Below, one piece after another: positions 13,064 through 36,981 of a stretch of DNA of 64,000 bases. Source of the DNA: a virus (lineage: Duplodnaviria > Caudoviricetes). The DNA lies in the IMG/VR virus record IMGVR_UViG_2772190776_000003, positions 1-64,000 of that record; one strand, 5' to 3'. The number at the start of each line of letters is the position of its first letter. Position 1 is the stretch's first letter. Both the position numbers and the translations under genes were made by a program. The notes beneath the pieces are model-generated. The model was not told where the DNA came from, did not search any database, and worked only from the letters and a program-made list of their open reading frames with translations.

Positions 13064-13180
13064 AGATGCCATTGCATCCATTTAAAACAATCAATGCTGC
13101 AGAAAATAAAAAAAGATGCAAAAGCATCTATTGATTGCCGTGCATAGCCATATGTGGTAAAAATAGATGAAAAGGCATCT
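13064..13180. promoter_or_regulatory. Three palindromic operators of the hipBA-like operon
   Basis: AGATGC-N4-GCATCC (13064), AGATGC-N4-GCATCT (13114), AGATGA-N4-GCATCT (13165). Confidence 0.7.
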
Positions 13181-13189
13181 TTTAACACC

Positions 13190-13498
13190 ATGAAACACAG
13201 CATCCACACCGTCGCAGACCTCGGCCTGATTTTGCGTGCAGTACGTAAAAGCCAAGGCTTGCGCCTGGACGATTTGGCAGGCAGCGCAGGCGTTGGCCAT
13301 GTGTTTGCCCGTGAGGTGGAGCACGGCAAAGCAACCGTGCAGATGGGCCGCGTACTCAAGCTGCTTCAAGAAGCAGGCCTTCAGCTTACCGTAGACATCC
13401 CATCCAGCGCGCTGGAGCAATTTGAAGCGCTGCAATCCACGGGCCTCAAACCTCTGAAGCCACGTACACGCAGCAGCAACGCAAAGGCCAAGGCATGA
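13190..13498 (+). CDS. hipB: XRE-family HTH antitoxin (HipB-like)
   Basis: LGLILRAVRKSQGL...EHGK HTH, overlaps the hipA start. Confidence 0.8.
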   Translation: MKHSIHTVADLGLILRAVRKSQGLRLDDLAGSAGVGHVFAREVEHGKATVQMGRVLKLLQEAGLQLTVDIPSSALEQFEALQSTGLKPLKPRTRSSNAKAKA

Positions 13499-14787
13499 GC
13501 ACGGCACGCCAGCTTCTTGTGCGCATCAATGACGCCACAGTGGGCACCCTCAGCACCCAAGACGACATCTGGCGCTTTGCCTACGCCCCTGAATGGATAG
13601 CAAGCCCCAAAGCATTTGCGCTGGCTCCAGGACTGCCGCTTTCAGAAGCCGAATATGTAGACGGAGCCAGCCAACGCCCCGTGCAGTGGTACTTTGACAA
13701 CCTGCTGCCCGAAGAACAACTGCGCAGCGTGTTGGCCAAAGAAGCCCAAATTGATGAGGCAGACGCTTTTGGCCTGCTGGGCTACTTTGGCGCAGAGTCA
13801 GCAGGCTCACTGGTGCTGGCTGCACCCGATGCAACCGCTGCAGCAACGGGGCTGCAACCTCTGCCTCTGCCAGAGCTGAATGTCCGCATTCGCAACCTGC
13901 CCCGCGCCACGCTCACGCAAAAATCGCCCAAGCGCATGTCACTGGCGGGTGCGCAGCACAAAATGGTGGTGGTCTACCGCGATGAGCAACTGTTTGAGCC
14001 ACTGCCCGGCACGCCCTCCACCCACATCCTCAAGCCGGACAGCCAGTCTGCCGACTACCCGCACTCCGTCATCAACGAATACTTCAGCATGCGCCTGGCC
14101 GCAGCAGTGGGCTTGAACGTACCCGCCGTACACCGCCTTTATGCCCCAGAGCCTGCATACATTGTTGAGCGCTTTGACCGCCGCACAGGCCCGGATGGCA
14201 GCACCCAACGCCTGCACATCATTGATACCTGCCAGTTGCTGGCCAAGTCACGCGCCTTCAAATACGAGCAGGCAACCTTGGGCACACTGGTTCAGGCTGT
14301 AGAGCAATGCACCGCCAAAGCCGCCACACGCCTGCAGCTGTACCGTTGGCTGGTGTTTAACTACCTGCTGGGCAACGGTGACAACCACCTCAAAAACATC
14401 TCTTTCCTCATCAGCCACGCAGGCATACAACTCGCCCCCGCTTACGACTTGCTGTGCACCGCGGTGTATGACACCCGATCGTTCAGCGAAAGCCCCGTCT
14501 GGCCTAAAACCCAACTGGCGCTGAGCTTGGGCCAAGCCACCCAGTTTGAACACGTCAACCGCGCAGTCATGCTGCAGGCGGGGGCAGATTTAGGCTTGTC
14601 CAAAGGCACCGCAACACGCGAACTGGACAAAATGCTCAAAACACTGCCAGAGCATGCCGACCGACTGATCGCAGCAATTGAAGCCAGCTACCCTGCTCAG
14701 GCCACCAACTACCAGGCGGGTGAACTACGGCTGCTGCGCGCCATACGCCATGTGATCGTGCAAGACACACTCCAGCGCTTGCAATAA
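13495..14787 (+). CDS. hipA: HipA family kinase toxin
   Basis: Coupled N-terminal domain FDNLLPE, SLAGAQHK, HILKP, VERFDR, GNGDNHLKN, LAPAYD. Confidence 0.95.
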   Translation: MSTARQLLVRINDATVGTLSTQDDIWRFAYAPEWIASPKAFALAPGLPLSEAEYVDGASQRPVQWYFDNLLPEEQLRSVLAKEAQIDEADAFGLLGYFGAESAGSLVLAAPDATAAATGLQPLPLPELNVRIRNLPRATLTQKSPKRMSLAGAQHKMVVVYRDEQLFEPLPGTPSTHILKPDSQSADYPHSVINEYFSMRLAAAVGLNVPAVHRLYAPEPAYIVERFDRRTGPDGSTQRLHIIDTCQLLAKSRAFKYEQATLGTLVQAVEQCTAKAATRLQLYRWLVFNYLLGNGDNHLKNISFLISHAGIQLAPAYDLLCTAVYDTRSFSESPVWPKTQLALSLGQATQFEHVNRAVMLQAGADLGLSKGTATRELDKMLKTLPEHADRLIAAIEASYPAQATNYQAGELRLLRAIRHVIVQDTLQRLQ

Positions 14788-15744: not shown

Positions 15745-16000
15745 AACAGGCTCCTTGACGACAGGTTTTGAACCCATCCTCTCCCCGACCAAAAGGAGGT
15801 GATGGACCGTGCAGGGTTGGTCGACCGGGTCAAGGAACCGGCACACCCTTGCGGGTGTCCCCACACGGCCCACCGTAAAGCGAAACCATGTGCACGCAGA
15901 CATGCTTAGAAAGCAAAAAGCCGCAACCAACTTTTTTGTGGCGCGGCTGCTGCGCCTTGACTACCGAGCGACCAAGCCCAGATCACGCTTACGGGCGTGA
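15745..16000 (-). ncRNA. C4-type antisense RNA and target leader upstream of rha
   Basis: 5' hairpin TCACGCCCGTAAGCGTGA. Seeds TTGGTCG and GTCAAGG are complementary to downstream CGACCAA and CCTTGAC. Confidence 0.7.
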
Positions 16001-16024
16001 TGTGCAGATTCTATGCGCTTTTCT

Positions 16025-17509
16025 TTACGCCTCCAACCGTCCGGACATCTCACAGACTTCTAAATATTTATTTAATTTAATAAATATTTCGTTTTCCTGC
16101 CCACTTCTTAAATTAAAAGATTGCATTACATAACCAGCAAGCCTTAACTCATCAAAATCAACCCTACTCCTACCATTCTTGGAAATAATTGAAATAATTG
16201 CAAAAGATTTCAAAAAATCTCCCCAAGTCCTTATGATAGTGCTATACGAAGAGCCATTTTTCAAAAAAATATGCTTACTCAATTTATCAAAACCATTACC
16301 TATTTGATTAAAATTTTCAATAAAATTTCTACTTATTAGCTTCTCAAGCTTTATTAAACACAACAATAAAAATATTATCTCTTCATGTGGCAATATTGAA
16401 TCACCTTTCTTAAGAAGTTCTAAACATATACGGAGCCTAGAAAACAAAGATTTTATCACTCTAAGATCAAAATTATAATTCAGACAAACAAACTCATAAA
16501 ATCTCAATGCATCCCCATTAAAACTTATTGAATCACTCAGGAGAGAAGATTTCGAATCCATAATACTCCTAAAATCGTCCAAAGAATATATATATTCTTT
16601 TATTGTTGGAGATGGTAACTTTAATCTATGATTAAAAAATCTATCCAAGTATCTATCTGCTTCGAAATTAGCACCATAAATTGTCCTAATTGACTCTTTT
16701 AATTGAAATATATTCACAGAAGATATAAAACATATACCTTTTGAATTAAAAATGTGTTTTACCACTTCCAGAAGGCGCACAGCATAATCCGGCCGACATC
16801 TGTCTAATTCATCAATAAAAATGAACACTGGGCCTATAGATGATTTTTTTCCACGCACCAAATCTTCTGCGACCCTAGACAATTCAGCTTTAAATTTCTC
16901 GATAAGCTGTATATTTTTATTGTGCGCTTTTAATTTTGTGTGGAGCGAGAAAGATGCAATTTCATTTTGTTCATCTTTCTCACTATCAAGAACCTCTTTA
17001 GTACTATCAGCAATTGATTTAGCTACTTCTTTAGCGACCTCGTCCGTAACCAGATAGCCAAGTGCTTTAACTCCTGCACCTTTCACTAGTTCTTGAGCAA
17101 TAGGCAGCAGCCGCTTTTGAGATTTTTTAATACTTTCGCTAGCTAATTTGACGCACCCCCTCTTATCCCAACGCTCCAGATCAGCGTAAATATGACTGAG
17201 AAAGCCAATCAACGGCTCATCAACAATGTCGTTCTTCCACGCATCGAACCGACTGACGAGATGGCCCTTAGCTTCCAAATCACGCATCCAGCAATTGATA
17301 AAAAAGCTTTTTCCACTACCCCAATCTCCATCAATTGCAAAGATTAATGCATTGTCTTCAGCTTCGCTTGTTTCCGCGAATTCAATCACTTGGTACAGAA
17401 AGTCTGCATAGCCTTTTCTATTTAACTTATCATTAGCCCAAATATTATTTATTTCTATTTCTTTATCTTGCAAAAGCATACATACCTTTAAATAAAAAAG
17501 CCACTTCAT
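16025..17509 (-). CDS. KAP family P-loop NTPase
   Basis: Walker A GDWGSGKS, RFDAW, Walker B FIDELDRCRP, YLDRFF. Very AT-rich. The start may be 17479. Confidence 0.9.
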   Translation of the reverse strand: MKWLFYLKVCMLLQDKEIEINNIWANDKLNRKGYADFLYQVIEFAETSEAEDNALIFAIDGDWGSGKSFFINCWMRDLEAKGHLVSRFDAWKNDIVDEPLIGFLSHIYADLERWDKRGCVKLASESIKKSQKRLLPIAQELVKGAGVKALGYLVTDEVAKEVAKSIADSTKEVLDSEKDEQNEIASFSLHTKLKAHNKNIQLIEKFKAELSRVAEDLVRGKKSSIGPVFIFIDELDRCRPDYAVRLLEVVKHIFNSKGICFISSVNIFQLKESIRTIYGANFEADRYLDRFFNHRLKLPSPTIKEYIYSLDDFRSIMDSKSSLLSDSISFNGDALRFYEFVCLNYNFDLRVIKSLFSRLRICLELLKKGDSILPHEEIIFLLLCLIKLEKLISRNFIENFNQIGNGFDKLSKHIFLKNGSSYSTIIRTWGDFLKSFAIISIISKNGRSRVDFDELRLAGYVMQSFNLRSGQENEIFIKLNKYLEVCEMSGRLEA

Positions 17510-17537
17510 TTACAGGAAGCAGCTTGAAACATAAATG

Positions 17538-17969
17538 TTATTTTTTACTTGATTTTGCTAATCTTCTTTTCCATTCGAGAGGATCACATTCTTCGCAAAT
17601 ATTAAATGCATCATGCCCATGTGTTGCTTGGAAAAATTTCCGCATTAATTCAAAAAGATCTTTCTGATAACTATTAACGCTTTCCGCAGAAAATGCAGCA
17701 GCGTGATCACGAACAAACATCATCATGCTTGGAAAGTCTGGCAGATAGACTTCATAGATATGATCACCTCGCAAACAAACATGCGCTAGAAATTCTCCTC
17801 TGTTCTCAGACTCATAAATCTGAATATGCGACAAATCTTCTCCACCGAATTCCATTGGTAAAGTTTTGAAATTTATCCTTATAAGATAATCATCAAAATC
17901 TTCACCATCTTCCCAATCCAATAAATGACAATCGTTAAACCATTCACCACGCTTGTATGTATACCGCAT
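17538..17969 (-). CDS. Hypothetical protein (acidic, C-terminal HxH...CxxC)
   Basis: 143 aa with strong RBS AGGAGG, in an AT-rich operon. Confidence 0.75.
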   Translation of the reverse strand: MRYTYKRGEWFNDCHLLDWEDGEDFDDYLIRINFKTLPMEFGGEDLSHIQIYESENRGEFLAHVCLRGDHIYEVYLPDFPSMMMFVRDHAAAFSAESVNSYQKDLFELMRKFFQATHGHDAFNICEECDPLEWKRRLAKSSKK

Positions 17970-17989
17970 ATCCAGCCTCCTCCTTTTAA

Positions 17990-18916
17990 TTAAATAGAAC
18001 GTAACTTGTATTTCTTTATCTCTGTCGCACTGACAGGATCACGAAATACGGTAACGCTTACAGGCAGATTTACGCTTTGCCCCAGGCGCATTGCGGACAC
18101 CACATCGGCTTGAGCTTTTGGCTTGAATTTAATATTTATTTTTTCACCAGATGCCGTAAGCAATTGGATACGGCCTGATGCTGAAAGCAAACTAACAGCA
18201 CCTGCTATTTCAGCATCTTTAGGCTCAGGGTCTTTAGTACTTTTTAAAAGTGTTCTGATGTGAATGACTTCTGAATAAGAAATCATTTTGCTTTTGGCTG
18301 CACCATTGGCATGCCATTTCACTTCCACAGAGCATTCCTCTTTTTCAATGGCATACAGCACGTCGTGCAGTGCATCAGCAGCCATTTCCCCCAAACCATC
18401 AATGGAGGCATAGAACTCTGCCGCATCCCTGCCGCTATTAAGTGTGTCAAATAAGTGTTCAACACCTTCAACTAGCGCTGTGGTGCCAGTCATGTCTGGC
18501 ATGGTGTTGCCAACAATAAATAAGCGGGCAGAGCCTTCTGCAAGGCCGGCGAGCTTGAGGTTCATTTCATTGGAGAAACTTTCGCCAGTGCCGTTTTCAG
18601 GCTCCTCATGGTTTCGGGCGAAATAGGCTGCGCGCAGCAATAGCTTGTTAAGGGGGTCTGACAGACGCGCCAAAAGCCCCATTGGCACTGCGCCGCCTTC
18701 TGTGCTTTGACCAATCAAGCGCCATTCAAGCGCTTGAGCCGCAAGTAAACCTTTTGCCTCTTCAAGCTGAATTTCGGCTTTTCTAGCAGCACCTAGTTGG
18801 TTTTTTGCTGCGATTTTAAGAAGCGGGTTTGCAGGGTCTTGTGCTGACCGCTGTGCCGTGATGGTGGCGAATTCACGCAGTTTTTCTGCGTGCTGCTGGA
18901 GAAAGGCGAGATTCAT
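17990..18916 (-). CDS. Hypothetical protein, partner of the nucleotidyltransferase
   Basis: 308 aa, 4-nt overlap with the upstream gene. Confidence 0.8.
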   Translation of the reverse strand: MNLAFLQQHAEKLREFATITAQRSAQDPANPLLKIAAKNQLGAARKAEIQLEEAKGLLAAQALEWRLIGQSTEGGAVPMGLLARLSDPLNKLLLRAAYFARNHEEPENGTGESFSNEMNLKLAGLAEGSARLFIVGNTMPDMTGTTALVEGVEHLFDTLNSGRDAAEFYASIDGLGEMAADALHDVLYAIEKEECSVEVKWHANGAAKSKMISYSEVIHIRTLLKSTKDPEPKDAEIAGAVSLLSASGRIQLLTASGEKINIKFKPKAQADVVSAMRLGQSVNLPVSVTVFRDPVSATEIKKYKLRSI

Positions 18917-19365
18917 ATCAAAACCTCCGCAATACCTTTGGCGGTCACTCGGTCGTGGCAGTACCCAAACATGCCCTTCCAGTAGGCCTCTTCGTGAATG
19001 ACCCGCTCTGGTGCGGGCATTGCAAGGTATACATCAAGCCCGTAAACAGCTTTGCAGGTTGGGTTATCAAAAAGCAATTCGGCCTGTGTTTGTTGGTCAT
19101 CATTGAAAGGCGCTTGAATCATGGGGGACCACATAATTAAGTCGATGTCATTGGGCGTTTCTTTTTCTGTAAGAAAAGAGCCGTCAAGCCACACGCAACC
19201 TGATAAGCCCAGTTGCTTGAGCTGCTGGCGCCAAGCCAAGAACCGACCAAAGAGGTCTGCTCGCTTTGTGCTGCCAGGGAAAGCTTCGACGGTTAAAACT
19301 TTGATCTCCTCAAGCGTCAGCCGGTGTAGCCCGGGCTGCAACAATGGCTTGGCATCTACCTTCAT
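18913..19365 (-). CDS. DUF6932-like minimal nucleotidyltransferase
   Basis: WLDGSFLTEKETPNDIDL matches the pol-beta-type GS...DxD motif, C-terminal KGI. Confidence 0.75.
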   Translation of the reverse strand: MKVDAKPLLQPGLHRLTLEEIKVLTVEAFPGSTKRADLFGRFLAWRQQLKQLGLSGCVWLDGSFLTEKETPNDIDLIMWSPMIQAPFNDDQQTQAELLFDNPTCKAVYGLDVYLAMPAPERVIHEEAYWKGMFGYCHDRVTAKGIAEVLI

Positions 19366-19444
19366 TTCGCTTCATGCGGACACCTAGTCGCACATGCCTC
19401 CTTGTTATTAGTGATGGCATGTTACACAACCGAATATCAGGCAC

Positions 19445-19783
19445 TCAACTCTCCCCCAACAACCTCTGCACCCACCGCACACTCACCCCGTACTCCCGCG
19501 CCAGGGCGCGGGTGTTGCGGCCGTTGAACTTGGCGCGCACCTCTGTGGCGATGCGTTCACGCTCCATGACCCGGGGGTTGCGCACGTAAACGGTGGAGCC
19601 ACCCAGTCGGTCTACATAACGGCTAACCAACGCCTCGGTCAAATCTTCCACCCGCTCCACGCCATGGCACACGGCGGCGGCTGTCAGCTCTTCACGCAGC
19701 ACGGCGATGGGGTCCAGCTTGTTTGCTGCTGTGGTCTTTTTGCTCATGGTTTTGATAGCTGGTTGCGCTTGATTCATGGTCAT
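19445..19783 (-). CDS. Mor/C family transcription activator
   Basis: LGGSTVYV...FNGRNTRALAREYGVSVRWVQR. Confidence 0.85.
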   Translation of the reverse strand: MTMNQAQPAIKTMSKKTTAANKLDPIAVLREELTAAAVCHGVERVEDLTEALVSRYVDRLGGSTVYVRNPRVMERERIATEVRAKFNGRNTRALAREYGVSVRWVQRLLGES

Positions 19784-22700
19784 TGCAGGCTAATTGGGGC
19801 AAATATGTCTTCGTCGGCTGTACTGGTGGCAGGCTGCGCCACGGCAAGCGGTACGGGGGCGGCCGGTGTTGAGGGCTGTGCGCCCTGCTCTTGCGCGGGT
19901 GGTGTGCTGAACAGGTCTGGCGGGGGCTGCACGGTTTGCTCCAGTTGCAGCCATTTAGACTCTGGCCATTTGTGGAGGCCGTTGGCCATGGCGGCATGCA
20001 GCGAATAGTTTCGGCAGTTGCCCGCGATGAAGGTTTTGCCGCCACGGCGCACGATCAAGGTGCCATTGGGAACTGTTGCGCAATAGACACGCCCTGCGTA
20101 GTGCACGGTTTGGCCGATGTAGCCACGTTTGCCATTGCCACCGCCGTCTAGATAGGCACGCGAGGAAAGCCGTTCATAGACGTGGTATTGCAGTTTGGGG
20201 GTGGTGGGTGATTGATGCCCGCTGATGACAGGCCGGTGTTTGGGCTGCACCACCCGCATAGTGGCCGCGTTACCAGTTTTGATGAACAGCTCCTGCATGT
20301 CATCAGCCAGCAACCGCGATGTGGTTGCATAAGCCCGGTTTGGCCGGTGGTGCGCTTTGCGCTGCTGCGCCCAACCATCGCCTGCAATAGCGGCGTTCAG
20401 GAAGGCTGCGATTACGCTGGGCTTGGCATCTTTGATCCATTGCGGCACGCGGCGCTCATGCTGGAGTGCACCAAGCGGCGCCACGAGGTCGTAGACCTGT
20501 TTGCAGGTGAAGATGTATCTGTCATGGGTGACATGGAACTTCCAAGGCAGACGAGCGAGCAGTGCTTCAATTTCAAGACGTCGATGGGGCTTGGTTTGAT
20601 GGATGGTGACGCGCCTGCGCACATTGCCTTGTGTTTTGCTGCGCACCTCTTGCACGGAGCCTTCTGACACCCACCAGCCAAAGAAAGCGGCCATGTCATG
20701 CGCATCTACCGCGACTTCTGGGAACAAAAGGCGGTTTTGCGCTGATATGGAGGCGGGGATGACATAGGCGTCTGCCTGGTTGCCTTGCCAGGTGGCCGCA
20801 ATTTTGAGGGCATGGTGAACGGTGAGGTCTTTCGCCAAGGTAATGGCCGGTGACACATCCAAGTTCCATTTGCGCACGCCGGGGGCAATGGTCTGATGCG
20901 CTTTCTTCAAGGTCACCATGCGGTGCCCAGGCGTTACCAGCACATCAATGGACTTGCCTTTGAGTTGCACCATGTCGCCGCTGTAGGGTTTGTCAATGAG
21001 TAGCGATGGCTGCTGGTACTCCATCAGGTCGGTGGACAGGTTGACCGTGGCCAGAAGGTCTTCATAGCAGACATCGCCCCAGCGCTTCCAGCCTGTATGG
21101 GTGAGCACTTCAGTTTCTGCGTCAAAGCAGTCCAACACTTCATTGCGTGGGCGGCGTTTGACCCACTTGTAAACGTCCCGGCCTTGCACCTTGGCCAGGA
21201 TGCGCTGCTCGGCAGTGAGCTGCTCATACCATTCGCGGGGGAGCTCCTGGCTGGTGTGCACATAGCCGGGGCCTGGCTCTGTAATGGCGAGCTGGCCCAG
21301 CAGCAGGTCTTTGGCGTTGTCTACGCCTACGAGCCACAGCTTGATGCCTTTGGCGATCTTGCGGCCGCGGTGGTTGACCTCCTGCATGCTGCTGGGGCCC
21401 ACGATGTTGCGGTTGTCGTTGGTGTCACCCTTGATGGCACGGAGGTTGGCAATCCTGGTCTGGGTATTGCGCACCCAGTTGTAGACGGCCTGGGTCTGGT
21501 CTGAGGAGTCAATGCTGACTGCAGACAAGCCCAGGGTGCCACCGTGGAGCGCCTGGGGGAAGCGCTGGAGCAGGAACTGCTCTACGGGCTCCCAATCTGC
21601 GTCATTGGCTGGGTTGCCGTAGATGACGTGGTGCATCACTGTCCAGCTCTCCAGGCCCCTGCCCCACCCCCAGATGGCGATTTCCCAGCGGTCACGCTGC
21701 ACGTCAACCCCGGCTGTCAGGTACAGCGCGCCCACAGGTACGCGGCCGAGCGGAAAGTCCTCTGCCCGCTGCTGCAGCACGTGCTCGTCGCTGCTTTCGC
21801 CCTTCACCTCCCAGGTCTCGCCCAGCGTTTCGTTGGTGAAGCTGGTCATGGGGCCCACGTCGCCAGCTTGCATGGCGCGGTAGGCTTTTTCGTGCTCGTC
21901 CACGATGCTGGCCCATGTGCGCTGGGGGCTGTAGGCCGCCCAGATGTGCACACCCAGGGTGCGCGGTGGGCGGCAGGGCTCGCCCTTGGCGTTGCGCCAC
22001 TGGCCATCTGCGTCGTAGCGGATGCCGGTTTTCTTGCAGACCCATGCGCCGCTCAGGGGCCAGCCGCCGGGCAGGTAGTCTGCCTGGGTGATGCTTTCGC
22101 GGCAGTGGGGGCAGACGTGGCGCACGGTTTCGGGCTTGCCTTTTTCCCACTTGAAGCCATAGGGCAGGTCTTTGCTGCCCCAGATGAGCGGATGCTCACC
22201 ACCGCAGTGCGGGCACTCTATGTGGTACTGCACATAGGCTTCAGACTCTTCACAGGCACGCTCTACGTGGCACAGGCCTTTGATGCGGGGCGTGCTGCCG
22301 CCCACAAACTTGGGGTACGGCGCACCCTCCAGACGGCCCTTGGCCAGGCTGCCTGGGTCGCCGGACTTCTCAATGGTCTGATCGAATGCGGACCATTCAT
22401 CCAGAATGGACACGGCCACCGTAATACGCCGGTAAGCGCGTGCCGCCTTGCCACCCAGCAGGTGCAGCACCGAGTCACGGAAGGGCTTGTACTTGATGGT
22501 GTCCACCACGCCCTTGCCCTGCTTGCGTGCAGCGCGCACGGCGGGCACACCGTCCAGCACGGGCTCAATCTCGCTTTTGACGTAGCTGTCCCGGTCATCA
22601 TCCGTGGGCTGCCATAGCGCCTGCTTGCGGCGGCGGTGGGCGATGTTGTAGGCCACAAAGGCCGTGATCATCTTGGTATAGCCCACGCGCTTGGACTTTT

Positions 22701-22929
22701 TGACGGCCAGCTCCTCGATGCGGTCATCGCTCATGAAGTCCAGAATGCCGCGCTGGAAGGGCCACCCTACCCAGCCGCCCTTCTGGTGGCTGGACTCGCC
22801 CGCCAGAATGAAGTGCTGGGCCGCCCACTCGCTCAGCGTCTGCGGCTCATCGGCGCGCAGGCTCTCCAGCCCCAGCCGCACAGCGGCCTTGATGGCGTGC
22901 AGGGCTTCTTTACTCAGGGGCGCGGTCAT
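19780..22929 (-). CDS. Terminase large subunit GpA containing an intein
   Basis: KSKRVGYT Walker A, ILDE Walker B, GSTP, CPHC pairs, AGVDVQ nuclease motif. Confidence 0.95.
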   Translation of the reverse strand: MTAPLSKEALHAIKAAVRLGLESLRADEPQTLSEWAAQHFILAGESSHQKGGWVGWPFQRGILDFMSDDRIEELAVKKSKRVGYTKMITAFVAYNIAHRRRKQALWQPTDDDRDSYVKSEIEPVLDGVPAVRAARKQGKGVVDTIKYKPFRDSVLHLLGGKAARAYRRITVAVSILDEWSAFDQTIEKSGDPGSLAKGRLEGAPYPKFVGGSTPRIKGLCHVERACEESEAYVQYHIECPHCGGEHPLIWGSKDLPYGFKWEKGKPETVRHVCPHCRESITQADYLPGGWPLSGAWVCKKTGIRYDADGQWRNAKGEPCRPPRTLGVHIWAAYSPQRTWASIVDEHEKAYRAMQAGDVGPMTSFTNETLGETWEVKGESSDEHVLQQRAEDFPLGRVPVGALYLTAGVDVQRDRWEIAIWGWGRGLESWTVMHHVIYGNPANDADWEPVEQFLLQRFPQALHGGTLGLSAVSIDSSDQTQAVYNWVRNTQTRIANLRAIKGDTNDNRNIVGPSSMQEVNHRGRKIAKGIKLWLVGVDNAKDLLLGQLAITEPGPGYVHTSQELPREWYEQLTAEQRILAKVQGRDVYKWVKRRPRNEVLDCFDAETEVLTHTGWKRWGDVCYEDLLATVNLSTDLMEYQQPSLLIDKPYSGDMVQLKGKSIDVLVTPGHRMVTLKKAHQTIAPGVRKWNLDVSPAITLAKDLTVHHALKIAATWQGNQADAYVIPASISAQNRLLFPEVAVDAHDMAAFFGWWVSEGSVQEVRSKTQGNVRRRVTIHQTKPHRRLEIEALLARLPWKFHVTHDRYIFTCKQVYDLVAPLGALQHERRVPQWIKDAKPSVIAAFLNAAIAGDGWAQQRKAHHRPNRAYATTSRLLADDMQELFIKTGNAATMRVVQPKHRPVISGHQSPTTPKLQYHVYERLSSRAYLDGGGNGKRGYIGQTVHYAGRVYCATVPNGTLIVRRGGKTFIAGNCRNYSLHAAMANGLHKWPESKWLQLEQTVQPPPDLFSTPPAQEQGAQPSTPAAPVPLAVAQPATSTADEDIFAPISLQ
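20017..21129 (-). mobile_element. Intein (371 aa) with LAGLIDADG homing endonuclease
   Basis: Starts CFDAETEVLT after RNEVLD, block B TPGH, FFGWWVSEGS and FLNAAIAGDG motifs, ends VYCATVPNGTL...FIAGN followed by Cys+1. Confidence 0.9.
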
Positions 22930-27743: not shown

Positions 27744-27803
27744 ACTATATCGGTTTGCCGATTTTTACACAAGCGGTTTACCGCTATCGGAATTCCGTAT
27801 GCT
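27744..27803. promoter_or_regulatory. OR operators with PR and PRM promoters
   Basis: ATCGGTTTGCCGAT, AGCGGTTTACCGCT and ATCGGAATTCCGTA. PR is TTGTGT-17-TATAGT on the minus strand and the PRM -10 is TATGCT. Confidence 0.75.
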
Positions 27804-27810
27804 TTGCACT

Positions 27811-28464
27811 ATGAATACAGAGTTCGGCCAACGCCTTAAAACAGCACGCAAAGCGGCAAAAATGACCCAAGCTGATCTGGCCAAAAAGGTCGGTATCGGC
27901 CAGTCAACCATTGCTGAGCTTGAAAAGTCCGGCAACGGCTCCAGCCATGTCCCCGTCATGGCGGCCGTACTCGGCTGCTCCGCGTTGTGGTTAGCTACTG
28001 GCGAAGGTCAAATGAATACCCCTGTTGGGGCTGGATCAAATGTTGAACCAGGTCCAGACATAAGAGGCAAGGTACCCCTGGTTTCTTGGGTCCAGGCGGG
28101 TGCTTGGTGTGAGGCGTGCAATCCTGTGGACATATCAGAAGTAGAGCGCTGGCTTGCTTGCCCAGTGCCACATAGCAAAAGCACATTCGTACTGCGCGTG
28201 CGCGGAGACAGCATGACAGCCCCGTCCGGCAATGCACGCACCTACCCGGAAGGCTGCTTTATTTTTGTGGACCCTGAGCGGCGCTCCCCCGTGAACGGGG
28301 ACCGCATCGTGGCCTGCCTGGCCGGCAGCAATGAGGTGACATTCAAAGTCTTCAAAGACGAAGACGGCCGCCGCTGGCTGCAGCCCCTGAACCCCAGCCA
28401 CGAGCCCATCCGCGAGCCCTTCAAGGTGCTGGGCACAGTGATTGGGAAATGGGAGGATGGGTAG
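27811..28464 (+). CDS. cI: CI repressor (HTH + S24 peptidase)
   Basis: XRE HTH, VQAG cleavage site, GDSM serine and TFK lysine. Confidence 0.95.
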   Translation: MNTEFGQRLKTARKAAKMTQADLAKKVGIGQSTIAELEKSGNGSSHVPVMAAVLGCSALWLATGEGQMNTPVGAGSNVEPGPDIRGKVPLVSWVQAGAWCEACNPVDISEVERWLACPVPHSKSTFVLRVRGDSMTAPSGNARTYPEGCFIFVDPERRSPVNGDRIVACLAGSNEVTFKVFKDEDGRRWLQPLNPSHEPIREPFKVLGTVIGKWEDG

Positions 28465-28555
28465 GAACCCTCTGCACATCTAGGACAACACCAACAACTC
28501 ATGGCTTTGCAACTGAAAAATAGTTACACTGCTAGGCCAACCTAACACTCACGGC

Positions 28556-28819
28556 ATGTCAAAGCACGACAAAACGATCGCGAAACTTACAGCGAAGCCT
28601 GTGCCAACAGATTTGAAATGGGATGACCTTGTTGGACTGCTCTCGCACCTAGGCTATGAACAACTCAACAACAACGGGTCAAGGCGTAAATTTGTGAACA
28701 AAACTAGCGGTCACATGTTGTCTTTGCATGAACCTCACCCTCAAAACGTTATCAAACAATACGTCGTTCGGATGGTCTGCGAAGAGCTCATCAACCAGGG
28801 ATTGATTGCTGAAAAATGA
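28556..28819 (+). CDS. hicA: HicA family mRNA interferase toxin
   Basis: GSRRKF...LHEPHP. Confidence 0.9.
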   Translation: MSKHDKTIAKLTAKPVPTDLKWDDLVGLLSHLGYEQLNNNGSRRKFVNKTSGHMLSLHEPHPQNVIKQYVVRMVCEELINQGLIAEK

Positions 28820-28841
28820 ATTCACTCTAAGAGGTACCGCA

Positions 28842-29330
28842 ATGGATAAACTTCTCAATTACAAGGGTTATCACGGGTCGGTAGAATTTGATCTTAATGA
28901 AAAACATTTATTTGGAAAAATTCTCCATATTAATGATTTAGTAACTTACGAAGCCGAAACCGTTAGCGAACTTACTAATGAATTTAAAGCAGCTGTTGAT
29001 GATTATTTGGAAACCTGCAAGCAATTAGATAAATCACCTGACAAAGCATTCAGCGGTTCTTTCAATATTCGCACAACTGCTGAGGTTCATAAAAAATTAA
29101 GCATTATCGCCAGCGCCAAAGGTGAAAACCTTAATACTATTGCAAATTTAGCGTTAAAGAATTTTATTGACAGTAACGATGATAAATTAAAGCCTTCTAC
29201 AACTATTATTGTGCAGGTGCAACAACAAAAAAGCCTCAGCACTGCGACTGGCACAGGCCAAACCATATCTTGGAATAGCACAAGCATGACTGACGGAATG
29301 GCATTTAGAAATTTATCGACGGTGCAATAA
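28842..29330 (+). CDS. hicB: HicB antitoxin with C-terminal extension
   Basis: YKGYHGSV, AVDDYL and RHH FSGSFNIR motifs, then an S/T/Q-rich tail of about 45 aa. Confidence 0.9.
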   Translation: MDKLLNYKGYHGSVEFDLNEKHLFGKILHINDLVTYEAETVSELTNEFKAAVDDYLETCKQLDKSPDKAFSGSFNIRTTAEVHKKLSIIASAKGENLNTIANLALKNFIDSNDDKLKPSTTIIVQVQQQKSLSTATGTGQTISWNSTSMTDGMAFRNLSTVQ

Positions 29331-33941: not shown

Positions 33942-34006
33942 TCAGGACAACACAAACAAGTGAGCAAATGGCGTTAACCGCCGCCACCGCTGGGAGAAAC
34001 ATACAA

Positions 34007-34765
34007 ATGACCACCGTCAGCCGCATTGAATGGACAGAGCGAACATGGAACCCTACTGTCGGGTGCACCAAAATCTCGCCCGGCTGCAAGCACTGCTATG
34101 CAGAAGCAATGTCATACCGTCTGAAGGCCATGGGCACCCCAGGCTATGAAAACGGCTTCGCCCTCACCCTGCTGCCAAGCCGCTTACAAGACCCCATTGA
34201 GCGCAAAAAGCCCACCGTCTACTTCGTCAACTCCATGTCGGATCTGTTTCACGACAAGGTGCCAGACGAATATATAGAGCGCGTCTTTCAAGTCATTGAG
34301 CAAACACCGCAGCACACCTACCAAATCCTCACCAAACGCGCTGCCCGCATGGCCCGCTTCTTCAAAAAGCGCAGTGTGCCTAGTAACGCATGGATGGGTG
34401 TCTCGGTAGAAGACAAAAAATACGGTGTTCCGCGCATCAAGCACCTGCGCAAAGTGCCCGCCAGCATCCGCTTTCTGTCGGTTGAGCCATTGCTGGAAGA
34501 CGTAGGCCAGCTTGACTTGGCAGACATCCATTGGGTCATCGTTGGTGGTGAATCAGGCCCCAAAGCCCGCCCCATGGAAAAAGCTTGGGCACTCTCCGTT
34601 CAGCAACAGTGCGAGGACCAAAACGTTGCCTTCTTCTTCAAGCAATGGGGCGGCTGGGGAGTTGACGGTAAAAAGCGCGCTAAGGCGGCCAATGGCCGCG
34701 AACTGAACGGCCGCACATGGGACGAAATGCCCGATGGCGTAGCAAATCGCATTAGCCCTGTCTAG
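34007..34765 (+). CDS. DUF5131 (Gp37/Gp68) radical-SAM-like protein
   Basis: IEWT, GCTKISPGCKHCYA, NSMSDLFH, GGESG, FFKQWG. Confidence 0.92.
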   Translation: MTTVSRIEWTERTWNPTVGCTKISPGCKHCYAEAMSYRLKAMGTPGYENGFALTLLPSRLQDPIERKKPTVYFVNSMSDLFHDKVPDEYIERVFQVIEQTPQHTYQILTKRAARMARFFKKRSVPSNAWMGVSVEDKKYGVPRIKHLRKVPASIRFLSVEPLLEDVGQLDLADIHWVIVGGESGPKARPMEKAWALSVQQQCEDQNVAFFFKQWGGWGVDGKKRAKAANGRELNGRTWDEMPDGVANRISPV

Positions 34766-34858
34766 CTGTTTGATCGTACAGCTTGATACTTCTGGCACTG
34801 TCATGCAGAGTAATAAGCCCCCGGCTTAAATCTGGCAGCAATTGCTGCCACGCACTGC

Positions 34859-36124
34859 ATGACAAAAAAGCACTACGAATGGGTATTGGGAGGCACTCCA
34901 CCACAAATTTTGCGCCACAGCCAGGTCAAACACGACCTGCTGCGCGACTATCTTGTGGATTATTTTTTAACCCTGGTCACAGCACCCGGGCAAGAGCGCG
35001 TACAGCTAACCATTGTTGACGGCTTCTGCGGCGGTGGACTTTACCGCGACGTAGCAGGCCGTGAAGTACCCGGCTCACCCATCGTTATTCTGCAGGCGAT
35101 TAAAGAGGCACAAGCCCGCGTCATGCTGGAAATGCAAAGGCATAAGCCTATCGACTTTGACGTCAAACTGATCTGCATCGACATCGATGAATCCGCCATA
35201 GCCCATCTGCGCTATGTGCTTGACGGTCATGGTTATGGCGACAAGCTGCGCTCAGGCGCCATCGAAACCCTCACGGGTGACTTTTACGAGCTCAGCGAAC
35301 CTGTGATCAATGAAGTAGCACGCCGCTCACCCCGTGCAGGGCGCGCCATATTCATTCTGGATCAATACGGTTATGACAAGGTACCACTGGCCACCATCAA
35401 CACTATTTTCAAAAAGTTCAAAGGAGCCGAAGTTATTCTCAACTTCAACGTCGACTCTCTCATTAACTTCTTGAACCCCAAGAATTTGAGTGACTTTGAA
35501 CGCAAGACAGGCATCACAGATGCTGTGCCTGCTGATCTGCTGGATAAAGAAACACGCCTGCCTGGCTACCGCCGTACTGTTCAAAGCAATTTGCACCAGC
35601 GCATCATTCAAGGTTCAGGGGCCAAATATTTCACACCGTTTTTTATCCGCCCTGAACGCGGTCATGGGGATTACTGGTTGCTGCACCTGTCACAACACGC
35701 TAAAGCACGCGATGTGATGGCAACTACACATTGGAAATACAACAATCATTTTTCACACCATGGAGGTGCAGGATTTGATATGTTCAGCACTGGCTATGCT
35801 GCAAAAATTGATGATCAAGACAAAATTCAAAGAGGATTTTTGTTCGATGACCTAGCCGAAAAAATAAGCATCGAAACCATGCTGGAGCAAATTCCACGCT
35901 ATCTGGCTGAAGCCAAAGAAGGCATCAGCTTTGAAGCCTTCTTTGCACAGAGAATCAACTCAACACCAGCAACCAAAGCCATGGTTGAAAAAACAGTACT
36001 TCAATTGGCTCATGCAAATGAAATTGTGATTACTGATGAAAATGGAAAAATACGCAGCCCAAGAGTCGCAATTAAATCCACTGATTTAATAAAGCCATAT
36101 CCTCAAAAATTATTTTCATTTTAA
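34859..36124 (+). CDS. tcmP: Three-Cys-motif partner protein (SAM-dependent methyltransferase fold)
   Basis: VDGFCGGG, GSP and LDQYGY motifs, adjacent to DUF5131. Confidence 0.85.
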   Translation: MTKKHYEWVLGGTPPQILRHSQVKHDLLRDYLVDYFLTLVTAPGQERVQLTIVDGFCGGGLYRDVAGREVPGSPIVILQAIKEAQARVMLEMQRHKPIDFDVKLICIDIDESAIAHLRYVLDGHGYGDKLRSGAIETLTGDFYELSEPVINEVARRSPRAGRAIFILDQYGYDKVPLATINTIFKKFKGAEVILNFNVDSLINFLNPKNLSDFERKTGITDAVPADLLDKETRLPGYRRTVQSNLHQRIIQGSGAKYFTPFFIRPERGHGDYWLLHLSQHAKARDVMATTHWKYNNHFSHHGGAGFDMFSTGYAAKIDDQDKIQRGFLFDDLAEKISIETMLEQIPRYLAEAKEGISFEAFFAQRINSTPATKAMVEKTVLQLAHANEIVITDENGKIRSPRVAIKSTDLIKPYPQKLFSF

Positions 36125-36129
36125 AACAA

Positions 36130-36981
36130 TCATTCCTCTTCCATTCCATACCAGCTTGTCGTATCAACCACGAGTGAATAAGGCTTCATTTCTATTTTAT
36201 TTGGCGCTTCAAAAGAAGCTGTAAAGATACAGGAAACTGGATATGAACAACTGATAGTACAAGGATCATCTCTTGACCCATAATATTGATCCACTGAAAC
36301 TGAACCAGTAGCATGGTACTCAATATAGAGTGGCAGGAATTTCACTTCGACCTCACCACCATAGAAACCATCTATTGAATGAGACTGAGCAATTTCATCC
36401 AGTGAAGCTTGTGTTTCATTTGCAAACATGGACATAATTTCATCATGCGCTTTAGCCTCAACTGATTGAGAGAGCTCATTTTTTATATCGTATGCAGAAC
36501 TTATAACATTTAATAAACTCTGCATAGATCCAAGGACTAAGCTTCTATATTTATCATCAGGAACATCAATAGTTCCTTCGGATAAATGAACATATTTGCT
36601 CAAATCACCAAATTTCTTATTCAAATCTTTTGCAATATCATCTACATCAATTTCAAATTTATCAGAAAAATATGCAGAATCAAACCCTCCATGCAAAAAA
36701 TATCTTATTCTTTGCAATCTAGTTATGCCGTTCTTCGAAGTTTCATCTGCAACAAACCAACTGCACGCTCTCAAATCATCATCAGCAGCGCTTAAATGAA
36801 AAAATTTAGTCAGTATTTCTCTAAATACAAGCGTAAAATAAGCTGCTCTTAATAATCCATCTTTTTCATTTGCAAGTCTCTCAGATTCATCTAGCAAACG
36901 GCAAAGCAGCTCATTATCTAAAAGCTCTTTAATTCTATTTACTGTCGCTCTTACGCTCTCTTCAAAGCTGATAGCACTCAT
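36130..36981 (-). CDS. Predicted pPIWI-associating nuclease-like protein
   Basis: REIL...CSWF...TRLQR..Y..HGG...LSKYVH, with C-terminal LDEIAQSH domain. AT-rich. Confidence 0.6.
   Translation of the reverse strand: MSAISFEESVRATVNRIKELLDNELLCRLLDESERLANEKDGLLRAAYFTLVFREILTKFFHLSAADDDLRACSWFVADETSKNGITRLQRIRYFLHGGFDSAYFSDKFEIDVDDIAKDLNKKFGDLSKYVHLSEGTIDVPDDKYRSLVLGSMQSLLNVISSAYDIKNELSQSVEAKAHDEIMSMFANETQASLDEIAQSHSIDGFYGGEVEVKFLPLYIEYHATGSVSVDQYYGSRDDPCTISCSYPVSCIFTASFEAPNKIEMKPYSLVVDTTSWYGMEEE

Follow-up and report, generated by a model that had tools for sequence, protein, structure and literature searches.

The window analysed here comprises 64,000 nucleotides, positions 1 to 64,000 of the IMG/VR record IMGVR_UViG_2772190776_000003 (Duplodnaviria; Caudoviricetes), and is part of a 75-kb provirus record from a lambda-like prophage whose host is probably Comamonas. 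On its minus strand, between the terminase and portal genes, lie four genes encoding a putative nucleotidyltransferase (gene A), a 308-aa partner (gene B), a 143-aa protein (gene 3, hereafter p143) and a KAP-family NTPase (gene 4, hereafter KAP). An initial annotation had described them as four co-oriented, tightly packed genes of a candidate defence operon, and the minus-strand open reading frames (ORFs) were recovered exactly as delimited there, together with the 4-nt overlap of the first two, which reads ATGA at 18916-18913 and joins the stop codon of A to the start codon of B. Homologues were found for all four ORFs, and the conserved columns in their alignments mark them as genuine genes instead of chance reading frames. 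The AT-richness ascribed to them is genuine but uneven; all four fall below the flanking Mor, terminase, Rha and portal genes (GC 0.61-0.65), with GC contents of 0.51 for A, 0.48 for B, 0.36 for p143 and 0.34 for KAP. Repeats within the block were chance-like. The combination had not been recognised in the initial annotation, which held that a match to a described system would count against its proposal; A and B match the PADLOC models PDC-M63A and PDC-M63B, and KAP matches PDC-S20. As such, three of the four genes belong to catalogued, unvalidated candidate systems, and the system is not new. We consider it likely that the block is a stack of separately distributed cargo, namely PDC-M63AB, an orphan p143 and a PDC-S20 KAP, in a prophage defence hotspot. 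The features of the locus are collected in Table 1.

Table 1. Features of the four-gene block and its flanks (positions of the window).
Feature	Position	Strand	Evidence
Gene A (150 aa; DUF6932; PADLOC PDC-M63A; putative minimal Pol-beta-type nucleotidyltransferase)	18913..19365	-	Pfam, PADLOC, PHROG, motifs
Gene B (308-aa partner; PADLOC PDC-M63B)	17990..18916	-	PADLOC, PHROG, AlphaFold2 model
p143, gene 3 (143 aa, acidic; putative zinc site; belongs to no family)	17538..17969	-	Homologue alignment
Hairpin and T-run between p143 and KAP; terminator- or attenuator-like	17498..17525	-	Pattern scan, folding
Gene 4, KAP-family P-loop NTPase (494-aa ORF; PADLOC PDC-S20)	16025..17509	-	Pfam, PADLOC, Walker motifs
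Swappable cargo segment, 3447 bp, exactly the four genes	16007..19453		blastn breakpoints
Left flank: Mor-family small helix-turn-helix protein, beside terminase	19445..19783	-	Pfam Mor, E 1.8e-10; in most related loci
Right flank: C4 antisense RNA, then Rha-family antirepressor-like gene	15795..15880	-	Rfam RF01695, 65.1 bits, E 2.8e-11; Pfam Phage_pRha, E 1.4e-27

Gene A matches Pfam DUF6932 (E 2.8e-33), PADLOC PDC-M63A (PDLC04744, E 8.2e-34, residues 2-148) and phrog_9194. The GS...DID motif that had been pointed out in this gene is strictly kept, with G62-S63, D73-x-D75 and D111 invariant in 12/12 aligned homologues, so that every sequence satisfies the pattern hG[GS]...[DE]x[DE]...third carboxylate and carries the full acidic triad of a Pol-beta-type nucleotidyltransferase (NTase). 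Similarity beyond the motifs was weak: among the 12 members one matched Pfam NTP_transf_2 at E 0.2 and two matched DNA_pol_B_palm at E 0.045, the Atlas feature neighbours were NTP_transf_2/Polbeta clusters at 0.83-0.85, which serve as a lead only, and a sequence-profile search of the PDB gave no match at E<=10. The hhalign comparison with 15 NTP_transf_2 proteins was not significant (E 0.046, probability 1.2%), although the GS and DxD positions were aligned. Judging from its motifs and this weak similarity, gene A is a putative minimal Pol-beta-type NTase. A literature search under the name DUF6932 found nothing.

Gene B matches PADLOC PDC-M63B (PDLC04749) at E 1.2e-46 over residues 24-308, five further M63B models (six in total) and phrog_6603. 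Its family comprises ~350 clusters at 50% identity, and among the best 150 matches nearly all were ~300-320 aa long; a few fragments fell below that length, and no fused form that was clearly longer was seen. Structure prediction had been recommended with the initial annotation. The AlphaFold2 model of this protein is confident (predicted local distance difference test score, pLDDT, 87); residues 1-60 are modelled as a helical hairpin, and the barrel made up by residues 231-308 is OB-like and similar to SSB-type proteins, with a root-mean-square deviation of 2.5-2.6 Å over 73-76 residues and a Z of ~9, only moderately above background. Foldseek matched this region to Rim1 at E 5e-3, and the central part, residues 61-230, gave no structural match when searched as part of the full model. 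Against the viral models of BFVD, Foldseek matched gene B to a DUF6575-annotated phage protein (E 2.3e-12) and to a Leptospira phage LE1 protein (E 1.5e-9). DUF6575 is named among the domains of validated E. coli PD systems in the available part of the corresponding study (PMC9519451), and a literature search did not reveal which of those systems contains it. The link of gene B to DUF6575 through this model-based match may serve as a lead only, and none of 33 family members matched the Pfam DUF6575 model at E<=1. A sequence-profile search of the PDB returned four entries for gene B, at chance level only. Neither Pfam nor PADLOC gave a HEPN match, the only invariant His is H9, and no invariant Arg is followed by an invariant His. 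Gene B has no recognisable catalytic domain.

A and B occur together. An alignment-based scan of IMG/VR with gene B found 13 loci, with A directly upstream in 13/13 and with p143 or KAP in 0/13 by tblastn and custom hidden Markov models (HMMs), and the reciprocal scan with gene A found 14 loci, with B present in all 13 that have downstream DNA. The ATGA stop/start junction was present in 14/14 other A/B junctions that were read. Considering this pairing in both directions and the constant junction, A and B are a strict, self-sufficient and translationally coupled pair. The alignment was needed for this result, as a single-protein scan of IMG/VR with gene B gave no match. Searches of GenBank phages with the cassette DNA, p143 and B, at the DNA and protein levels, gave no match either, and the PDC-M63B model was found in 0/401 sampled genomes of one class and in 0/4 genomes holding p143, a sample and not proof of absence. 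Where the pair occurs elsewhere, it is preceded on its own strand by the gene of a CI/LexA-type S24 repressor in 5/7 loci examined, with direct adjacency in two, and in one locus (L009) the pair is placed between tail genes. Such positions in other prophages are typical of genes expressed from a resident prophage. As far as the available text describes it, the PDC set consists of 145 untested candidates that were obtained through 'guilt-by-embedding' and added to PADLOC (bioRxiv 2024.01.29.577857).

KAP matches Pfam KAP_NTPase (PF07693) at E 1.1e-34, with 120.5 bits against a cut-off of 20, and phrog_8614. Its match to PADLOC PDC-S20 (PDLC04959) reaches E 3.5e-75 and places residues 14-417 on positions 6-377 of the 464-position model, the C-terminal part of which is left unmatched. 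The Walker motifs reported by the initial annotation are intact, as G64, G66 and K67 of Walker A and D233-E234-L235-D236-R237-C238-R239-P240 of Walker B are invariant in 33/33 sequences. The start codon is more likely to be the second ATG at 17479, which would give a protein of 484 aa, because the 484-aa form corresponds to the database protein P0064 and the first ATG is located inside a conserved hairpin. The maximal 19-residue Kyte-Doolittle mean was 1.52, and by this crude test KAP has no transmembrane-like segment, including between Walker A and B. The last ~90-130 aa of the protein differ from one relative to another, and the KAP of one contig carrying all four genes (L025) aligns at residues 15-408 only. 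A related phage (L066) carries a 48%-identical PDC-S20 KAP (E 5.8e-75) alone between Mor and gpW, directly after Mor; no p143 remnant accompanies it, and the DNA similarity begins at the KAP coding region. GenBank phages yielded 5 distant matches to KAP, a sequence-profile search of the PDB yielded none at E<=0.01, and a literature search under the name PDC-S20 found nothing.

p143 had no match in Pfam, PHROG, NCBIfam or PADLOC, and 16 homologues were found in databases. In their alignment H117, H119, C125 and C128 are invariant (HxH...CxxC), which forms a putative zinc site, and the protein is acidic, with an isoelectric point of 5.1 and a family range of 4.6-5.6. Its model is confident (pLDDT 83), and the structural searches gave no match, with a best Foldseek E of 0.26 in the PDB, a best VIA-align Z of 5.2 and no usable match in the Atlas, a result that does not amount to a new fold. 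The p143 profile was present in 2/401 sampled genomes of one family, again a sample and not proof of absence. We compiled 20 distinct p143 loci from genomes, viral contigs and metagenomes. They share no common neighbour family, and A, B and KAP accompany p143 only in two loci of the window lineage, leaving 18/20 in which p143 occurs without A, B or KAP. Among other settings, p143 is found on a conjugative element (TraD/DUF4400) and on integrase islands, with an Mrr gene or a phage portal gene nearby, and behind a CI-type repressor. Some 11 of the loci have at least 1.6 kb downstream, enough for KAP, and KAP is found in none of them. The GC content of p143 homologues elsewhere follows the host (0.33-0.60). 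At L037:1673-3822, a p143 homologue overlaps a 208-aa unassigned ORF by 4 nt, and that ORF directly follows a CI-type S24 repressor gene; this locus may be another repressor-linked cargo operon.

The hairpin with a T-run between p143 and KAP has a folding energy of -11.5 kcal/mol in the window (z -1.75). Equivalent hairpins occur in two metagenome contigs carrying all four genes, L026 (-17.4 kcal/mol, z -6.2) and L025 (-13.6 kcal/mol, z -3.9), so that the element is kept as a structure with differing sequence in all three loci. The KAP start follows it almost immediately in the window and L026. We read the hairpin as an attenuator that would lower KAP expression. Sigma-70 and terminator pattern scans of the block were overall not above shuffle expectation.

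This hairpin, which stands directly before the KAP start in three loci, is the main reason that a two-gene unit of p143 and KAP beside PDC-M63AB stays a live rival to stacked cargo. In such a unit p143 would act either as an inhibitor of antitoxin type or as a sensor adaptor, produced in excess through the attenuator hairpin. Both genes have an unusually low GC content although p143 homologues otherwise follow their hosts, and the two diverge together relative to A and B. Several p143 and KAP database proteins also have entries of matching contig size, which is a hint only, since one of these pairs is impossible by size. While these points fit a joint unit, p143 lacks a KAP neighbour in the same 18 of its 20 distinct loci, the KAP of L066 lacks p143, and PDC-S20 is, by its name, catalogued as a single-gene candidate. 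We regard a p143-KAP unit as unlikely. A related proposal, which we rate as unlikely, is that p143 is no passenger and gates KAP as a small zinc-binding partner of a new kind, either as an inhibitor or as an infection sensor in excess via the attenuator, and that in this lineage might also link KAP to the NTase pair. If this were true, the locus would hold a multi-gene KAP system that is not yet catalogued.

The initial annotation had left open whether the four genes are one four-part system or stacked modules, and had suggested a co-occurrence analysis of the four families. In one integrated system, A, B and p143 would be co-transcribed, KAP would be kept low through read-through of the hairpin, and p143 would couple the NTase module to the KAP effector. 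Several observations favour this and weigh against stacked cargo. Besides the window, the order A-B-p143-KAP recurs in at least three metagenome contigs (L024, L025 and L026), and the four-gene block swaps as one segment; since the genes recur in order and move together, functional cooperation would be conceivable. The intergenic gaps are short, p143 following B after 20 nt with a strong AAGGAGG ribosome-binding site of its own, and between p143 and KAP there is the conserved hairpin alone and no space for a promoter. Considering this spacing, one transcript may cover all four genes. Many of the p143 loci, moreover, are short contigs, and only the ~11 mentioned above extend at least 1.6 kb downstream.

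The recurrence can nevertheless be inherited synteny, because every four-gene locus has Mor or Rha as a flank, as the window does: Mor precedes the block in L026, and Rha follows it in L024 and L025. These contigs look like the phage lineage of the window, and in the loci examined the four families were found together only within this lineage; otherwise the units are separate, A and B without the others in all 13 loci of the IMG/VR scan, KAP alone at the same hotspot in L066, and p143 alone in most of its loci. Within the lineage, identity to the window is 92% for A, 92% for B, 64% for p143 and 69% for KAP in L026, and 83%, 75%, 62% and 49%, respectively, in L025, where the KAP C-terminus does not align. 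As such, GC and identity patterns split the block into an A/B half and a p143/KAP half. Of the two possibilities, the evidence favours stacked modules, and a single integrated four-gene system appears very unlikely.

The block lies between the terminase/Mor and the c4-antirepressor/gpW/portal genes of a lambda-like head module. A portal-based scan found 79 related phage loci, with both terminase and portal in 65, and in these 65 the terminase-portal interval ranged from ~0.6 kb, with Mor and gpW only, to ~8 kb; that of the window is 7.2 kb. The intervals contain 141 ORF clusters, which are mostly singletons and often of low GC. When 80 of the proteins were scanned with PADLOC (the L066 KAP and 79 of the 135 cluster representatives without a label, for which the longer ones were taken), 37 of them matched defence models at E<=1e-10. 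These matches included PD-Lambda-5 A and B, Lamassu LmuA/LmuB, Thoeris ThsA/ThsB, Dsr2, a retron reverse transcriptase with a 2TM protein, DRT UG17 with SLATT, AbiLi/AbiLii, PD-Lambda-1, PDC-S35, restriction-modification enzymes, OLD/Gabija-like ATPases and PifA-like KAP. Several systems per allele are common at this site, for example in L068 and L122.

The boundaries of the exchange were seen in sibling prophages. By blastn, L057 and L058 are 98% identical to window positions 23299-19454 and 96% identical to 16006-10001, and between these breakpoints they carry 2.7 kb with PD-Lambda-5 in place of the 3447-bp block. In L060 and L063 the break falls at these points too, to within 10 nt. This makes the four genes precisely one cargo allele of a recombination hotspot. 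A third sibling (portal 99%, Mor 100%) has another segment of ~1.6 kb at the same breakpoints (L083:4975-6569).

Because the hotspot holds known defence systems in related prophages, the location lends strong circumstantial support to a defence role, and the defence assignment of the initial annotation holds to this extent; anti-phage activity of the four genes themselves is what we infer from it. Alternatively, the genes could keep the prophage stable as addiction or toxin-antitoxin modules, or they could benefit the phage itself as cargo for anti-defence or regulation. HipBA and HicAB modules are indeed present in the same prophage, the A+B layout is toxin-antitoxin-like, and p143 is small, acidic and found on mobile elements, including the conjugative element beside TraD/DUF4400. 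Weighing in the same direction, against a defence role, deletion of PDC-M63AB in its native E. coli NILS69 prophage caused no detectable loss of defence against 10 phages in the portion of the report available (PMC12409345); it was the only published test of PDC-M63AB activity that a literature search found, and no positive experimental support for PDC-M63 or PDC-S20 was found in the literature. While these points suit non-defence cargo, related phages have validated defence systems at the same position, and PADLOC candidate families were chosen for their association with defence systems, according to the accessible text (bioRxiv 2024.01.29.577857). Single-gene KAP NTPases of other types were also reported, in the part of the study at hand, to protect E. 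faecalis in a manner that required the Walker B motif (PMC13552941). A non-defence role for the four genes seems highly improbable.

Returning to stacked defence cargo, the block would have been acquired horizontally at a hypervariable defence hotspot, and its units would act separately. Gene B might bind a nucleic acid or protein cue of an infecting phage, upon which gene A would nucleotidylate a target, either gene B itself, as in MNT-HEPN pairs, or the 3' end of an RNA, as for MenT/AbiEii toxins; the resulting response would be abortive and toxin-antitoxin-like. p143 would be a small acidic putative zinc protein that is mostly found by itself on mobile elements. If KAP works like the KAP proteins validated in Enterococcus, NTP hydrolysis could drive or gate its variable C-terminal part.

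Other features of the prophage were noted during the analysis. On the minus strand, the C4 antisense RNA immediately precedes the Rha-domain region. The 'Rha' ORF of 341 aa from 15930 has probably been called too long, and the c4/antirepressor unit resembles the P1-type immI operon. The large terminase (gpA type, 1049 aa, 19780-22929, minus strand) contains a LAGLIDADG-type insert that is likely an intein; in most related phages the terminase spans ~2.0 kb and has no insert, and L057 and L058 have the 3.1-kb form. Inside the terminase-portal interval, on the opposite strand, a HipB-like helix-turn-helix gene and a HipA kinase form a toxin-antitoxin pair (13154-14787, plus strand) that is 97-99% conserved in the siblings. 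At 27799-29330 (plus strand), a low-GC HicA/HicB pair (GC 0.36-0.45) comes after a CI-type S24 repressor gene, a position that M63AB uses in other prophages. At 33968-36124 (plus strand), a DUF5131 protein and a GMT-wHTH protein match PADLOC PDC-M30B and PDC-M30A (E 1e-114 and 4e-24), and at 36130-36981 (minus strand) there is a solitary pPIWI-associated nuclease with a GC content of 0.35 (Pfam pP_pnuc_1/2; PADLOC Aga_Nuclease, E 3.7e-55), whose flanking ORFs have PDC-M30A and Bro-N matches, neither of them an Argonaute.

While the locus reveals no new class of system, it provides an independent line of evidence for the computational candidates PDC-M63 and PDC-S20, which here occupy a defined hotspot shared with known systems. 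The Comamonas-type phage family offers a convenient natural allele series for testing both candidates, and p143 is an unexplored conserved small gene of mobile elements.

In comparison with known systems, the A/B pair corresponds to PADLOC PDC-M63 by its matches to both models, and its gene order, its overlap and its place in a prophage are those of 13 other viral loci; there is no structural difference, and the pair is followed here by two further cargo genes. MNT-HEPN pairs consist of a minimal NTase encoded first and an effector encoded second. The A/B pair resembles them in its arrangement, with the small protein that bears the NTase motif in first place and a larger partner translationally coupled to it, while it differs in that gene B has a helical hairpin and an OB-like fold, lacking a conserved R-x4-6-H motif or HEPN match, and gene A is a DUF6932 protein and not NTP_transf_2. 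AbiE and MenAT contain an NTase toxin that modifies tRNA, and their NTase is the second, larger gene (DUF1814). Like the A/B pair, they are two-gene modules on mobile DNA that include a nucleotidyltransferase and are abortive or toxin-antitoxin-like in character, whereas in the window the NTase is the first gene, of 150 aa, and no PADLOC AbiE match was found.

Many KAP NTPases have transmembrane helices inserted within the NTPase domain. KAP of the window resembles PDC-S20 and EF_KAP in its P-loop with intact Walker A and B motifs, its variable C-terminal region and its single-gene occurrence, as in L066. In the part of its description that is available, EF_KAP has two transmembrane helices and a 322-aa C-terminal region (PMC13552941); by that description, KAP of the window differs in having no such hydrophobic segment and a tail of only ~90-130 aa. 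PifA and QatA share the KAP NTPase domain, in the core only. QatA was rejected as an identity for gene 4, as the PADLOC match (E 2.9e-13) came from the core only, the NCBIfam QatA score was 53.8 bits against a cut-off of 600, and the neighbours are p143 and the Rha-like gene instead of QatB, QatC or QatD; PifA of the F plasmid was rejected likewise, with a PADLOC match (E 4.9e-11) confined to model positions 36-256 of 720. As for the site itself, known prophage defence hotspots include the P2/P4 cargo hotspots and lambda rexAB next to cI. The hotspot described here shares with them fixed flanks and interchangeable defence cargo, with PD-Lambda-5 in siblings and other systems in relatives, and differs in its location between the large terminase/Mor and the c4-antirepressor/gpW/portal genes.

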